Counted from the stretch's first letter, positions 4,763 to 45,965 are shown. The stretch: 64,000 nucleotides of DNA from an uncultured Candidatus Saccharibacteria bacterium (GCA_964426735.1 CAYRRP010000003.1:13378-77377), one strand, 5' to 3'. A program made the numbers and translations. Notes: generated by a model from the letters alone, not told the origin.

Positions 4763-4810
4763 AATGATATACGAATATGCGAATTAAATACTTACGAATG
4801 AATACGAATG
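4763..4810 (-). repeat. tandem ATTCGTA heptamer repeats (x4) between gatC and gatA
   Basis: Minus-sense reading: ATTCGTATTCATTCGTAAGTATTTAATTCGCATATTCGTATATCATT then ATG of gatA. Same heptamer recurs upstream of map and secY. Confidence 0.5.
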
Positions 4811-5092
4811 TTAGCCTAATATTTTTTTAACTTCCAAATAATTACCGTCTCGAGCAGGCGCATTGGTAAGGAGAGCTTCAGTGTACTCACCTTCTTTATT
4901 AAGTATTATGTCTTCTCGCATAACATTTCTCAAAGATGAGAGGGGTTTTACCGCCGTCTCAGATACTGAGGTAACCTGACTCACATAGCCCAAAATAGAC
5001 TCAATACTTTGAGCAAGCGCCTCTTTTTCTTCCTCAGATACTTTCATACGAGCAAGATCTGCAAGCTTTTCTATGTCTTTTTTCTCAATCAT
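4811..5092 (-). CDS. gatC: Asp/Glu-tRNA amidotransferase subunit C
   Basis: 93 aa with KVSEEEKEAL..SILGYV pattern typical of GatC. Directly upstream of gatA. Confidence 0.8.
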   Translation of the reverse strand: MIEKKDIEKLADLARMKVSEEEKEALAQSIESILGYVSQVTSVSETAVKPLSSLRNVMREDIILNKEGEYTEALLTNAPARDGNYLEVKKILG

Positions 5093-5130
5093 GTTCCTAT
5101 ACTACACTATTTTTTAGAATCCGTCAGGAA

Positions 5131-7149
5131 CTAAAATAACGCAATAAAATCACTCTCAGAAAGTATTTTAACTCCCAGTTCCCGCGCCTTATCAAGCTTA
5201 GACCCTGCAGACTCACCTGCTACTACGTAATCTGTTTCTTTTGAGACCGAAGAAGAAACATCCCCGCCAAGTGCGCGAATTTTTTCTTTTGCTTCATCGC
5301 GAGACATGGTCTGAAGTGTCCCGGTGAGTACAAACGTCTTACCTTTAAGCTTCTCTTCTTTCTGCTGACTGTCAACTGTCTTCTGTAGACTAATGTATGC
5401 AAGCAAATCATCAACAATTTTTTTATTTTTTTTATCTTTGAAAAAGGTAGCGACTGACTCGGCAACAATAGGCCCAATACCTGGAATAGCAAGCAATTCT
5501 TCCTCTGTCGCACTCCTTATTTTTTCAATTGTTTTAAAATGATTTGCAATATCATGCGCAGTCTCCTCACCTACCTGTGGAATTGAAAGTGAAATCAAAA
5601 ATCGTGGAAGTGTCGTCTTTCGAGCTTTTTCAATTGACGCAAGCAAATTATCAGCTGACTTTTCTGCAAAACGCGGAAGTGCAAGAAGATCTCCTTTCTT
5701 CAAGGTAAAAATATCTGCATATTCTGCTATAAGCTCTGCATCGAGAAGCTGATCGATGATCTTTGGCCCCATATCCTCTATATTAAGTGCACCTTTTGAT
5801 GCAAAGTAGTGAAGCTTACGTTTTTGTTGTTCATATGAATCCTTTACCACACAGCGCCATGCAGCAGTTCCTGCTACTCGCTCGATCGCACCATCTCCAC
5901 CACAAAGCGGAACGTGGGTTGGCCATTTGAAAGGTTTCTCTTTTCCTGTTCGTAGTTCTCTAACAACCCGCACAATATCAGGAATCACATCACCTGCTTT
6001 TTGAATAATCACTGTATCACCAATACGCACATCAAGACGTTTTATTTCATCTTCATTGTGTAAGGTTGCTCGAGAGACAGTCGAACCTGCTACCAACACA
6101 GAACGAAGATGAGCAACTGGAGTCACTACACCTGTACGCCCCACCTGAAAGACAATGTCTTCAATAACAGTTGTTACTTGTTCTGCCGGGAATTTATATG
6201 CCACTCCCCATCGTGGTGATTTACCAGTATACCCAAGAGCCTCCTGAATCTTTCGAGAATTGATCTTAAGTACGATACCATCAAGACCGTATTCGAGAGA
6301 ATCTTTTTTATGTACCCAGTGTTTATAGAAAGTTTCTACCTCAGCAAGATTCTTACACACCACCGTATGTGGATTTGTTACAAAACCGAGTTCATGCAAT
6401 AACTCAAGCTCTTTTGCTTGTGTTTCGATCTTCTCTGCAACAAAATTCTCTATATCATATATAAATGCGTGAAGATTTCGTTGTGCGACAATTTTTGGAT
6501 CGAGCTGACGAAGTGTTCCTGCTGCAAGGTTTCGAGTGTTTGCATACAACGGCTCTCCATTTTTTTCTCTTTCTTTGTTTATCTTTTGTAATTCACTTTT
6601 ACCAATCCATGCTTCACCAATTGCAATAAGAGAAACATTTTTGTTTAGTCGCAACGGAATATCTTTTATTGTCTTAATATTCTCTGTTACATCCTCCCCA
6701 ACCGTACCATCCCCTCGAGTTGCTCCTCGCACCAATACACCATCTTCATACGTGAGAATAACTTTAAGTCCGTCAATTTTTAATTCCGAACAATATTCCA
6801 CAAGTTCATCCTGTACCCCACCTTTTTTAATAAAATTAAAAACCTTCTCATTCCATTTCTCCAAACTCTGTTCATCAAATACATCATCAAATGACCATTG
6901 CTGTACCGCATGTGTCACCTTTACGAATTCCTTAAGTGGCTCACCTCCTACTCGCTCTGTGGGACTATTTTGTGTTTTTAATTCTGGATACTGTTGTTCA
7001 AGTGAACTCAATTCTTGCACTAAAGAATCATACACTTCATCACTTATTTCTGGTGCATCATGTGTATGATACAGTCCGCGATGATAATTGATAACTTCTT
7101 GTAATTGGGAAACTCGCTTGATGATATCGTGCGGTATATTTTTTTTCAT
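5131..7149 (-). CDS. ligA: NAD-dependent DNA ligase
   Basis: KIDGLK adenylation motif, OB-fold, Zn-finger Cys cluster, HhH and C-terminal BRCT-like region. Confidence 0.9.
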
Positions 7150-7160
7150 ATGCTCTGTAT

Positions 7161-7616
7161 TTAATAACTAATTCTAATCGCGCGTTCAAACCGAGGATCA
7201 GTCGTACACGAATTATAACCTCGAGATTCGATGGTTGTCATATTACCTGGACTTTTTGTAACAGTTACAATAGCACAACTTGAACCAACTGGGATCTGGA
7301 ATGTACTAACTGTCGAACCTCCTCCTGATGTACGTGTAGGTGTCACCGTACTTCCTCCACATGTCACTGTACCCGGAGTGGTAATATCAAATGCACTTAT
7401 CGTTGGATTATTTGGATTTTTAATATCCCAGAAAAGTGCACACTCAAGACCACTGTCAGCAATATAAAATGCATTATGAGATTCAGTGTTTGTAGTTGTC
7501 AGTGTAAGTTGACGAAGCGCAATATTGGTTACTGCATATGCAACAAGCACCAACGTCGCCGTAAGTATAATAGAAGTCAATAATGCATACCCTGATTGTG
7601 ATGACGTGTGTTTCAT
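7161..7616 (-). CDS. pilin-like / pseudopilin protein
   Basis: N-terminal hydrophobic helix ([22 protein letters not shown]) and T/S-rich C-terminus. Last gene of the pilin run. Lacks a clean GFTLxE motif. Confidence 0.45.
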
Positions 7617-7617
7617 A

Positions 7618-44329: not shown

Positions 44330-44365
44330 AAACAGTTTCCACCTAGGATTATATAGTTATATTAT
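44330..44365 (-). promoter_or_regulatory. sigma70-like promoter for P4
   Basis: Minus-sense CTATTGACAGGTAATAATATAACTATATAATCC. Confidence 0.45.
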
Positions 44366-44389
44366 TACCTGTCAATAGTACCGATTACA

Positions 44390-44425
44390 CAAAATCCCCT
44401 TTTTTGAGGGGATTTTGTGTTTTGA
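44390..44425. terminator. terminator AAAATCCCC-TTTTTTGA-GGGGATTTTGTG
   Basis: Perfect 9-bp stem with flanking T/A runs. Confidence 0.6.
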
Positions 44426-44464
44426 AAACTAGATATTATGTGGTTACGAACTTTCACAATTTCT

Positions 44465-44576
44465 CCGAGGTCGCGGATAAAATATGGAAAGGGACCGGAG
44501 ACGTACTTACTGGTACGATGAGGACCATTTCCAGATTTTAGCCGATGAGATCGGTGAAATTTGGAAGTTCTGTTGT
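44465..44576 (-). repeat. terminator-module repeat family F, copy F2, directly after the secY stop
   Basis: GAGGTCGCGGATAAAATATGGAAAGGGACC-GGAGACGTACTTACTGGTACGATG-AGGACCATTTCCAGATTTTAGCCGATGAGATCGGTGAAATTTGGAAG. Confidence 0.45.
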
Positions 44577-45848
44577 TTAATACTCCCTAATAGAAACTTG
44601 AGCGTCGATTTTTTTGATAAGATCAATAACTACGGATACCGCAATCAAAAGCGCAGTACCTCCTACTGAAACCGCTGTAATACCAGTGAGTCCTCTGATT
44701 GCCAACGGAAGAATTGCAATCACGCCGAGGAACAATGCTCCGATAAGAGTCAGTCGAGTAAGAGTTTTCGCAATATGTTCAGAGGTTGGAGTACCTGGAC
44801 GTACACCCGGAATAAACGCTCCGTTTTTCTGAAGATTTTTTGAAATCTGATCAGGATCAAAGGTTACCGCTGTATAGAAGTATGTGAAGATAAATACAAG
44901 GAAGAAATATGCAATCGCATACACCCATGAGTTTGAGATAAATGTATTCAATGCAGTTGCAACATTTTTAATTGCAGGATAATCAACATTTGCAAGAAAC
45001 TGAGATATGATTTGTGGGAATAGCAATATTGCTGATCCAAAGATAATCGGCATAACACCAGCTTGATTCATACGAAGTGGAAGATATGTTGATGTACCAC
45101 CATATACTTTCATACCACGTACTTGTTTTGCATACGTGACCGGAATCGGACGCTCTGCTTCGGTGACCACTACCACAAGAACAACTACAACAATAGCGAT
45201 AATTGCAAAAAGTGCATAGAGTGGAAGTTGTACAGGATCAAATACATATGCAAGTTGAGAAATAGCTGTTGGAAGTTGTGACACGATACCTGCAAAAATG
45301 ATAAGTGATACACCATTTCCAATACCGTATTCAGTGATCAATTCACCAATCCACATCAGAAGCATCGATCCAGCAGTAATAACCGCGAGATTAACCATCA
45401 AATCAAACGGTGCCATTGACGCAATAACATTCTGAGATTCAAGAAGTTTAATCAAGCTAAATCCCTGAATCAGTGCAAAAGGTATTGCAAGCATACGTCC
45501 ATATTGGGCAAACTTTCGACGACCCGCATCCCCTTCTTCTTGATACATCTCTTTCAATCGTGAAGACATTACGGTAAGCAACTGCATAATGATAGATCCT
45601 GTAATATATGGACCCACACCAAGCATCACGATAGACAACTGTGAAAGACCACCTCCAGAGAACAAGTTGAGGAGTCCGAGAAATTCACTATTTGCAAACA
45701 AAGAAGTAAGTGCTGATTGATCTACACCAGGGATAGGGATAATAGCAAGAAAACGAAACACAACAAGTGCGCCAAGTGTGAACAAAATTCGTGTACGAAG
45801 AGCTTTGTCTTGTAATACGAGTCCGAATTTATAGAAAAAGTTTTTCAT
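44577..45848 (-). CDS. secY: preprotein translocase subunit SecY
   Basis: Ten-TM profile, conserved LGVGPYITGSIIMQLL and plug/hinge regions. Follows rplO. Confidence 0.9.
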   Translation of the reverse strand: MKNFFYKFGLVLQDKALRTRILFTLGALVVFRFLAIIPIPGVDQSALTSLFANSEFLGLLNLFSGGGLSQLSIVMLGVGPYITGSIIMQLLTVMSSRLKEMYQEEGDAGRRKFAQYGRMLAIPFALIQGFSLIKLLESQNVIASMAPFDLMVNLAVITAGSMLLMWIGELITEYGIGNGVSLIIFAGIVSQLPTAISQLAYVFDPVQLPLYALFAIIAIVVVVLVVVVTEAERPIPVTYAKQVRGMKVYGGTSTYLPLRMNQAGVMPIIFGSAILLFPQIISQFLANVDYPAIKNVATALNTFISNSWVYAIAYFFLVFIFTYFYTAVTFDPDQISKNLQKNGAFIPGVRPGTPTSEHIAKTLTRLTLIGALFLGVIAILPLAIRGLTGITAVSVGGTALLIAVSVVIDLIKKIDAQVSIREY

Positions 45849-45965
45849 GAAATTAATATACGAATATGTGAATCATACGAATTTACGAATGAATACGAAT
45901 GAATGCTTTTGAATGTGCTTTATTCGTAGCTATTCGTAAGTTTTTCATTCGTATATTTCGTATAT
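45849..45965 (-). repeat. TACGAAT and ATTCGTA repeats (both orientations, about 9 units) in rplO-secY spacer
   Basis: Minus-sense ...TACGAAATATACGAATGAAAAACTTACGAATAGCTACGAATAAAG...ATTCGTATTCATTCGTAAATTCGTATGATTCACATATTCGTATATTAATTTC-ATG. Confidence 0.4.

Follow-up and report, generated by a model that had tools for sequence, protein, structure and literature searches.

Introduction

Several heptamer families of the short tandemly repeated repetitive (STRR) sequences are said to have been first described by Mazel et al. in 1990. In cyanobacteria STRR sequences form hairpins between co-transcribed genes; their function is unknown, with a contribution to transcript stability considered possible (PMC2670836). 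Repetitive extragenic palindromic (REP) sequences, palindromes of 20–40 bp, are thought to be mobile and many of them act as RNA elements (PMC3733652), and palindromic microsatellite elements have been described from Fusarium mitochondria (PMC7218506). In this work we analyze a stretch of 64,000 nucleotides (henceforth referred to as the window; GCA_964426735.1, CAYRRP010000003.1:13378-77377, deposited as an uncultured Candidatus Saccharibacteria bacterium), in which arrays of units of 7–10 nt, belonging to three families (ATTCGTA, TTAATCC and GACT), stand immediately 5' of the start codon at no fewer than ten gene junctions. By the relatives of its SecY protein, the window belongs to the Candidate Phyla Radiation (CPR, or Patescibacteria) and within it to the Parcubacteria (Paceibacterota), near Candidatus Zambryskibacteria. 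Judging from the sequences compared below, it is well supported that the arrays represent a few families of fast-turnover dispersed repeats specific to Parcubacteria and other CPR, and they are probably mobile. We tentatively favor, at somewhat less than an even chance, the reading that these interchangeable repeats are tolerated, or have been co-opted, as open spacers for the translation of internal cistrons independently of Shine-Dalgarno (SD) sequences.

Results

Repeat arrays immediately upstream of start codons

ATTCGTA occurs 23 times in the window against 9.3 +/- 2.8 times in shuffled sequences, and none of 100 shuffles reached 23. Its density is 2.13 per kb in intergenic and 0.16 per kb in coding DNA (a 13-fold difference), that of TTAATC 2.74 against 0.52. 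Up to 60 nt upstream of the starts of the window, the ratio of sense to antisense occurrences was 11:0 for ATTCGTA and 14:0 for TTAATC. Elements accompanied 9 of the 32 starts in the ribosomal protein (r-protein) region and only one of 55 elsewhere (p = 4e-4). The window sequence, elements included, is 100% identical to two independent assemblies from the Sequence Read Archive (over 9.5 and 11.8 kb), and together with the shuffles and the contrast between intergenic and coding DNA this rules out an assembly artefact or chance as the source of the repeats.

Read on the gene strand, the common build consists of 2–5 inverted units, an A-rich center (AAGAATAAGAAAAATCCCATTC or ACAGGAAATGCATT), 3–5 direct units, a short A/T-rich stretch and the ATG. 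Most copies have both arms and are imperfect palindromes, and the inverted arm usually sits 3' of the upstream stop codon, beginning 0–12 nt past it. Orientation tracks the gene and not the chromosome strand: the element of rplT, a + strand gene, has the same sense as those of the - strand genes, and at a divergent gene pair in L036 (the loci and contigs compared here are designated by L and a number) each arm faces its own start.

A preliminary description of this DNA had reported ATTCGTA repeats before gatA, map and secY and TTAATC(C) repeats before ndk and rplT, and all of them were found in these places. The two-armed ATTCGTA element of secY (45849..45965, - strand) fills the rplO-secY junction, leading on the gene strand from the TAG stop through four TACGAA(T/A), a center containing GCACATTCAAAAGCATTC, four ATTCGTA with one ATTCACA variant, and TATTAATTTC to the ATG (four units and one variant at 45859-45900; three inverted units and one variant at 45922-45962). 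Its sense RNA is predicted to fold at -28.2 kcal/mol (z = -4.6); when the strands were compared, the antisense reached -38.2 against -26.0 for the sense. The same element holds an upstream ATG (45856-45882, - strand) that opens a frame of eight codons (ATGATTCACATATTCGTATATTAA), with its stop 4 nt before the secY ATG, and similar mini-frames occur in the ACTTTAT-type arrays of L008 and L015. At the adk-map junction (43061..43145, - strand; fold z = -3.6) four direct units (43066-43105) end 5–6 nt before the map ATG, and the inverted arm (two units, 43119-43133, within 43117-43145) encodes the final codons and the stop of adk (..ACGAATAG; ..AAACATACGAATCAACGAATAG), as it also does in L006. The gatA array (4763..4810, - strand), which occupies the 48-nt gatC-gatA spacer, has a single arm of three ATTCGTA and one ATTCGCA, all direct, 7 nt separating the last of them from the ATG (TACGAAT at 4770, 4793 and 4803 and TGCGAAT at 4778 of the + strand), with a predicted RNA structure of 0 kcal/mol, below that of shuffles.

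In the second family, the two-armed element at the rpmI (L35)-rplT (L20) junction (38878..38992, + strand; fold z = -3.3) contains three inverted GGATTAAAG (38888-38914), an A-rich center (AAGAATAAGAAAATTC..AAATCCCATTC), three TTAATC(C) (38953-38979) and 13 nt before the ATG, plus one TAAATCC. The array at the map-ndk junction (42244..42292, - strand) is, like that of gatA, restricted to the direct arm and predicted to be almost free of structure; its four TTAATC(C) units, which read as GATTAA at 42247-42274, end 2 nt before the ATG.

The GACT/AGTC family has five two-armed copies, all on the - strand, four with an exact period of 7 nt and one with a period of 9 nt (the range given being 7–9). 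They lie between rplF (L6) and rplR (L18) (47339..47418; on the + strand, four AGTC with period 7 and two GACT), between rpsH (S8) and rplF (47953..48034; z = -5.0; 23 nt left unpaired ahead of the ATG), between rplX (L24) and rplE (L5) (49303..49385), between rplN (L14) and rplX (49692..49771) and, as the GACTT type with period 9, between rplC (L3) and rplD (L4) (55141..55230; z = -4.5). The two copies that flank rplX, 400 nt apart, are nearly identical when placed side by side. The rplD copy, in which 30 unpaired nt with two further units precede the ATG, is kept in L004. At rplX the longest open reading frame (ORF) begins at 49712, inside the element, but the conserved N-terminus (MKLKKDDKV) and the homology with L004 begin at the ATG at 49691, most likely the true start of L24. 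Since homology with relatives begins only there, automatic callers may put the start of this gene too early.

The two-armed copies are predicted to fold as long imperfect hairpins with stems of 20–45 bp and z values mostly between -3.3 and -5 (-1.5 and -2.2 for two GACT copies). In half of the copies of the window the last 13–30 nt before the AUG are left unsequestered in the predicted folds. No Rfam 15 family reached the gathering score on any element, and none appeared at E values up to 5 over 38000-57500.

Exchange of families between close relatives

For comparison we used 80 secY loci from other genomes (1.4 Mb), sampled only within 10 kb of secY. Here too arrays were denser in intergenic DNA, 6.7 times the coding density. 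An array of at least three copies was found within 62 nt of 51 of the 2027 starts in these relatives, the last unit mostly 1–20 nt from the ATG; 41 of these starts were between co-directional genes and nine between divergent ones, and 29 of the arrays were two-armed and 22 one-armed. All intergenic arrays considered (n = 101), 79 were between co-directional, nine between divergent and nine between convergent genes. One-armed remnants almost always consist of the start-proximal, G-poor arm. More than ten unit families are present across the relatives, and at least three in the genome of the window. No link was seen across the 80 relatives between the presence of arrays and GC content or SD use (Spearman -0.09 and -0.20).

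The closest relatives differ strikingly in what they carry at the same junction. L004 has ~91% DNA identity to the window over the aligned genes and L010 aligns at 85–94%. At rplX, the window has GACT units, L004 and L006 have ATTCGTA and L010 has TTAATCC. At rplR, the window and L010 share GACT, L004 has a TTAATC type and L008 five copies of ATTCGTA. The secY junction carries ATTCGTA in the window, L004 and L006, TTAATCC in L010, and ATCTC, TTAAAAAT and ACTTTTA in L007, L014 and L020, i.e. five families overall, or none: in L005, L008 and most others it is bare, with 5–15 nt from stop to start. The ndk array is absent from L006, and the map-ndk junction of L008 has ATTCG(T/C)A. The TTAATCC core is common to rplT in the window, secY and rplX in L010, rplR in L004 and rplO in L005. 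Because orthologous junctions differ and the same cores recur across junctions and genomes, we consider the elements to be dispersed and to be gained, lost or exchanged fast; families that replace each other at one junction between close relatives behave like mobile DNA or DNA spread by recombination. The proposal that the repeats are gene-specific therefore has to be abandoned. When filled and empty junctions were compared between the window and L004, at ~91% DNA identity, the borders aligned poorly and no target-site duplication was visible.

Deep lineages and a copy inside a 23S rRNA gene

A scan of metagenomes with three ATTCGTA units, which covered the ATTCGTA family only, matched at least 120 contigs. 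Of the 157 arrays among the matches listed, 41 had an ORF start in the 30 nt that follow them when read in the ATTCGTA direction, and 10 when read in the opposite one. Again among these matches, the downstream genes, as identified by their N-termini, coded for r-proteins and secretion (L16, L24, L6, L5, L7/L12, S18, SecY), an S1-like protein, GroES, GAPDH, pyruvate kinase, triose-phosphate isomerase, RNase Y-like and RNase J-like proteins, UvrA, YchF and MraZ; of these, only L16, L24, L6, L5 and SecY were confirmed by BLAST with the window proteins. A build of four TACGAAT and four ATTCGTA is repeated at several junctions of L125 and L151, with r-proteins that are only 39–51% identical to those of the window; for the CPR lineages with this build as a whole the range is 39–56%. 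In L125 and L151 an SD-like GGA or GAG comes between the arrays and the ATG.

Two metagenomic copies are associated with rRNA genes. In L104 (contig Ga0208374_1000129, 4491-4582) a two-armed TACGAAT/ATTCGTA element lies inside the 23S rRNA gene, replacing a hairpin that we aligned by eye with helix 45; GGGAATTC is present on both of its flanks and also forms the base of the helix. Helix 45 is a site of the intervening sequences (IVS) that RNase III cuts out of the 23S rRNA of some bacteria, and the L104 element is an insertion of similar kind. The L131 copy is situated 3' of a 16S gene and 5' of an ORF that reads as rpsP.

An alternative view takes the elements for selfish or neutral palindromic mini-elements of no positive use, similar to REP sequences or to miniature inverted-repeat transposable elements, that insert or recombine into transcribed spacers; a filter against harm to translation would by itself yield the biases of strand and composition. 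We regard this as rather unlikely. Presence or absence and family swaps at orthologous junctions, the near-identical copies 400 nt apart, the SD-poor relatives that manage without elements, the copy in helix 45, where IVS occur in other bacteria, and adk reading into an arm and taking its stop codon from it all speak for it, as do the many metagenome contigs that terminate within arrays, expected of multi-copy repeats, and an unrelated hairpin element of ~125 nt that is also dispersed in these operons (see below). On the other hand, the elements cluster in the r-protein region, where selfish DNA would be expected to be tolerated least, and precede other highly expressed genes too, while the one-armed remnants keep almost solely the G-poor arm next to the start. 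Neither a target-site duplication nor a clean boundary was found at the borders compared between the window and L004, nor was a transposase-like or RAYT-like ORF noticed by eye directly downstream of the arrays, a look that took in only part of the ORFs of the 64-kb window.

The preliminary description had also suggested that the repeats bind trans-acting factors. In such a scheme a multimeric RNA-binding protein or transcription factor would contact one unit per subunit and govern regulons of growth genes. There is a precedent in TRAP, which binds 11 (G/U)AG repeats at leaders and ribosome-binding sites. A regular 2+2 arrangement of ATTCGTA across lineages with r-proteins only 39–56% identical, the period of 7–10 nt between direct repeats and the association with ribosomal, chaperone and glycolytic genes would all suit a factor of this kind. 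Yet a single small genome has at least three interchangeable families, and the relatives together have more than ten, one gene has different families or none in near-identical genomes, the arrays are at internal operon junctions and not at the promoter, and one copy is within a 23S rRNA gene. Separate regulons are hard to reconcile with the interchangeable families and the 23S copy; the deep conservation of ATTCGTA leaves some room for a specific factor. We judge the explanation quite improbable.

Composition and folding of the mRNA strand

The sense strand of the arrays in the relatives contains 9.7% G and 17.7% C, against backgrounds of 18% and 19%. The G-poor bias was found in 37 arrays against 12 and, considering one-armed arrays by themselves, in 18 against 4. 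Start codons are also depleted upstream of the genes: ATG was observed 19 times against 35.7 +/- 5.4 expected, and ATG, GTG and TTG together 54 times in the sense strand against 85.8 +/- 7.4 expected and 147 in the antisense. From -40 to +15, the starts with arrays are less folded (-4.2 and -4.6 kcal/mol) than the other starts of the same genomes (-7.5 kcal/mol; p = 2e-4 and 7e-4). These properties of strand and composition indicate a constraint at the level of translation, in agreement with the preliminary description as far as it placed the repeats in the region just 5' of start codons that have no SD.

The palindromes are asymmetric as well. At positions that are not Watson-Crick pairs in the sense strand, A.C (116) exceeds G.U (58), and the antisense strand therefore folds better; on average the sense RNA folds 4.3 kcal/mol worse (Wilcoxon p = 2e-4). 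We accordingly reject selection for a sense-strand RNA hairpin. Deamination coupled to transcription is known to shift the sense strand toward G and T. Because this bias runs in the opposite direction, we read the asymmetry as selection for open sense RNA or as the outcome of a filter that lets only some insertions persist.

The same folds bear on processing or stabilization through double-stranded RNA, in which two-armed copies would act as RNase III-type hairpins where polycistronic RNA is cut between its cistrons, in the manner of phage T7 mRNAs and 23S IVS, leaving protective hairpins and new 5' ends near the AUG. The long imperfect stems described above are placed exactly between cistrons, and in L104 an element extends helix 45, at which RNase III removes IVS in other bacteria. 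A list of ribosome biogenesis factors considered in CPR includes RNase III (PMC12641178), and STRR hairpins have been proposed to raise transcript stability (PMC2670836). Against this, there is no stem in the one-armed arrays, which comprise gatA, ndk and 22 of the 51 in the relatives, and under selection for a sense hairpin the sense strand should fold better than the antisense, not worse. We hold this explanation to be unlikely.

Shine-Dalgarno sequences, rRNA pairing and promoters

SD-like sequences preceded 10% of the starts of the window, no more than the 12% of a coding control, and in the whole sample of relatives they were found at 7% against 14–17% in the coding control, whether arrays were present or not. 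The arrays are found mainly at internal cistrons that have neither an SD nor a TATAAT hexamer of the leaderless type. Window genes with a promoter and a leader of 20–45 nt do have clear SDs (35130, 35719, 43842-44315 and 55231), and a good one is also present at 26961. The genes named in the preliminary description indeed lack an SD, but its portrayal of the genome as SD-less was too sweeping; judging by these sequences, leaderless, SD-led and SD-less internal starts apparently occur side by side in this organism. A TATAAT-like hexamer was noted 6–7 nt before the ATG of several first genes (31766-33706, 33764-34207, 4811-5092, 24660-24917 and 43117-43719).

One way to account for arrays in the SD position of SD-less starts is that they are a ribosome-binding signal that pairs with rRNA in place of the SD. 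No 16S gene was found in the window or in the secY loci, and the 16S sequence used was the 3' two-thirds (979 nt) of that of another array-bearing CPR lineage, the L131 contig found among the metagenome matches. Its 3' end is canonical (GGATCACCTCCTTTCT) and the heptamers are not complementary to this tail. Of 28 6-mers from the arrays, only three find a complement within the 979 nt, where ~6 are expected, and four match these 979 nt in the same sense. The core AATCCCATTCG is complementary over 10–11 nt to L131 237-247, but it varies between copies, and since about one 10-mer match is expected by chance we consider this one to be probably a coincidence. Many unrelated unit sequences occupy the same position, and the leadered genes of the window use normal SDs. 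On the evidence of this partial 16S, pairing with rRNA is rejected as the role of the arrays and is, in our estimate, extremely improbable. Nor is a distinct initiation signal read by the ribosome supported, and equally SD-poor relatives have no arrays. In the match at L131 237-247, the core AATCCCATTC(G) (window 38940-38950 and 43083-43092) is an exact 10-nt complement of GCGAATGGGATTAG of the 16S rRNA, which we placed by eye in helix 24, and units of the ATTCGC, CTAATCC and GACTAC types are all similar to the antisense strand of the 16S stretch adjoining GCGAATGGGATTAG. The likeness between core and 16S could hint at the origin of the units.

The arrays could also be internal promoters that provide each gene with its own leaderless transcript, as suggested by the TATAAT-like hexamers of first genes and by the last unit of the ATTCGTA family, often ATTCGTATATT-N5-6-ATG. 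In the GACT and TTAATCC families, however, a -10-like hexamer is lacking at the appropriate spacing, the distances at map (2 nt) and gatA (3 nt) are unsuitable, no match to a -35 was found, and an SD-like sequence separates array and ATG in other lineages. With no consistent -10 or -35 geometry in the sequences read, we reject promoters as the function of the arrays and regard this option as very improbable. The pair ACTTTCGAC upstream of adk (43720..43780, - strand; GTCGAAAGT at 43732 and 43748, i.e. 43732-43740 and 43748-43756 on the + strand) is another matter. It is present, as the preliminary description had it, but by its sequence context it is probably of a different class, lying within an apparent promoter for leaderless adk mRNA: a strong terminator hairpin precedes it and TATACT-N6-ATG comes after. 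L004 has GACTTT-type units here.

Other features of the window

The window has a GC content of 40% and the - strand holds most of its genes. Pfam confirmed Amidase/GatA, GatC, ADK, Peptidase_M24, NDK, SecY, L20, IF3 and L35 and the order of the operon, which is S10, an 89-aa ORF, L3, L4, L23, L2, an inserted region, S19, L22, S3, L16, S17, L14, L24, L5, S8, L6, L18, S5, L15, SecY, a 157-aa ORF, Adk, Map and Ndk. Small L29 and S14 genes are probably present in the gaps 3' of L16 and L5. IF3-L35-L20 and GatC-GatA are located away from this run.

Two weak members of the families were also noted. Two TTAATC units (3279..3343, - strand) stand just 5' of the start of a 322-aa ORF (2310-3278), for which no Pfam family scored above threshold, and a degenerate one-armed GACT array (52615..52650, - strand; AGTC at 52624, 52631 and 52638 on the + strand) is located in the 256-nt gap 5' of rpsS (S19).

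A second dispersed element, a rod-like hairpin of ~125 nt, was found at 44449-44569, 57111-57227 and 41203-41327 (- strand) and in L006 at 2467-2591. Two copies begin a few nt past the secY and tuf stops and a third lies between a DUF2238 gene and ndk. RNAalifold, applied to only four sequences, predicted 42 pairs, and compensatory double changes were seen in 16; there was no Rfam match, and an apparent 3' half is present upstream of rplP in L012.

The 157-aa ORF between secY and adk (43842-44315, - strand, within 43757-44386) has no Pfam match. It comes with its own TTGACA-17-TATAAT promoter, an SD and terminator hairpins on its flanks. It is absent from L004 and also from L003, a near-identical strain assembled from another sample, and we therefore consider it an insertion/deletion polymorphism. 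Between rplB and rpsS, ~850 nt (52492-53337) containing a 120-aa ORF without Pfam match and terminator-like hairpins interrupt the S10 operon. The break is also seen in relatives, and in L005 rpsS is in a divergent context. A perfect tandem repeat (238-332; unit of 37 nt, 2.6 copies, 100% identity) separates tRNA-Asp and tRNA-Met. ARAGORN called a tRNA-Ser (anticodon ACT) at 19509-19598, which Rfam did not report and which could be either an erroneous prediction or a tRNA of unusual type, and a tRNA-Ile (anticodon TAT) at 30894-30968.

Discussion

A proposed role of the dispersed repeats as open spacers

The reading that we tentatively prefer, in which dispersed repeats act as open spacers at SD-less internal starts, can be put as follows. 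Only copies with an mRNA strand that is poor in G, free of upstream starts and weakly folded would persist beside start codons. The spacer may then be an open track or landing site, by which ribosomes coming from the upstream cistron, or free subunits, reach the next AUG. Where both arms are present, the moderate hairpin starts 0–12 nt past the stop, so that the terminating ribosome would open it, and it could hold stop and start close together, in line with the two coupling models reviewed in PMC12548453. The effect would be modulatory and not essential.

Several points weigh against this reading. Every functional step in it is inferred, genes were called and arrays detected by simple rules of our own, and the relatives represent only the surroundings of secY. 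Equally SD-poor relatives without arrays have junctions of 5–15 nt, so the elements are dispensable. In the L125 and L151 lineages the ATTCGTA array does not replace the SD, because an SD-like GGA or GAG follows it. An open spacer needs no specific heptamer, yet ATTCGTA is kept across deep CPR lineages. The role of an open leader leaves the palindrome unexplained, the sense hairpin being that of the weaker strand, and the copy in the 23S rRNA gene has nothing to do with start codons. Lastly, the biases between strands could arise solely from purifying selection acting on insertions that are tolerated.

A bolder version, to which we give a low probability, is that CPR with little SD pairing use the elements as interchangeable mobile cassettes for initiation at internal cistrons, the G-poor direct arm providing the track for landing or scanning and the inverted arm a hairpin with a base that sets the upstream stop beside the downstream start, so that ribosomes are handed over on terminating, with horizontal spread across CPR lineages and tuning of expression through unit copy number. 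By analogy, such a hand-over would be a bacterial counterpart of ribosome shunting.

Even if the elements were only mobile DNA, they would be a new and abundant class of CPR repeats that splits the conserved S10-spc operons and enters a 23S gene. They disturb gene calling in either case, with the L24 start called too early and the adk stop inside an element. Should the role in translation be true, it would reveal how a large bacterial lineage with barely any SD pairing translates its internal cistrons, and it would give a first functional handle on heptamer-repeat hairpins, whose cyanobacterial STRR analogues are unexplained. Near-identical genomes with one family, another or none at a single junction are natural experiments for metatranscriptomes.

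Comparison with known systems

In the literature covered on SD use, leaderless translation, intergenic or palindromic repeats and intercistronic hairpins in Patescibacteria/CPR we found no description of these elements, most subscription journals being outside that coverage. Among known systems, STRR sequences are similar in having tandem units of ~7 bp in non-coding DNA (here 7–10 nt in 3–6 copies, with an exact 7-nt period in GACT), several unit families at many loci (here three at no fewer than ten junctions in 64 kb) and inverted arrays that can form intercistronic hairpins. They belong to filamentous cyanobacteria and have heptamers of their own, whereas the elements here are from Parcubacteria and their units are unrelated, making them an analogue and not a member. 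Beyond STRR, the direct arm abuts starts in a fixed sense, its strand is poor in G and ATG, and families are swapped; to our knowledge none of these three features has been reported for STRR.

With REP sequences and bacterial interspersed mosaic elements (BIMEs) our elements share the dispersal of imperfect palindromes in transcribed operon spacers, with several families per genome; REP/BIME may owe their mobility to RAYT transposases. They differ in size, REP being a single unit of 20–40 bp and the elements here 50–125 nt with arms of tandem heptamers, and in position, which in REP/BIME is mainly downstream of genes, convergent ones included, and here upstream of starts. As to the GTAG/CGTC tag of REP, a 3' end in GTAG is seen in some ATTCGTA copies of the L125 type, inconsistently in the window and in none of the other families.

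As RNA structures, the elements can be compared with the IVS of 23S helix 45, a helix that is likewise extended by the ATTCGTA element of L104, and with the intercistronic RNase III hairpins of phage T7 mRNAs, to which the two-armed copies are similar as predicted long imperfect hairpins exactly between cistrons. They depart from both in that many copies are one-armed and the sense hairpin is that of the weaker strand. Among SD-independent enhancers there are G-poor ones such as the ACAAUUAC/CAA repeats of the tobacco mosaic virus (TMV) omega leader and CA-rich leaders. Like the TMV omega type, the arrays are, by their sequence, G-poor and unstructured tandem repeats just 5' of an SD-less start, but those are single viral or synthetic leaders and not dispersed genomic families with an inverted partner arm.

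Translational coupling has been explained by RNA unfolding or by ribosome scanning, two models reviewed in PMC12548453. A hairpin over the stop-to-start spacer resembles the first, and the one-armed copies amount to a track poor in start codons; coupling is reported to be most efficient at very short spacing, though, and the spacers here measure 40–125 nt. The palindromic elements of Fusarium likewise combine simple repeats into inverted arrays, vary in presence from one close species to the next and are inferred to be mobile, but they consist of (A)n/(T)n tracts, are mitochondrial and have no link to start codons. We regard the elements described here as a new variant of dispersed intergenic repeat and, by host and unit sequence and by size and position, as a member of neither STRR nor REP.

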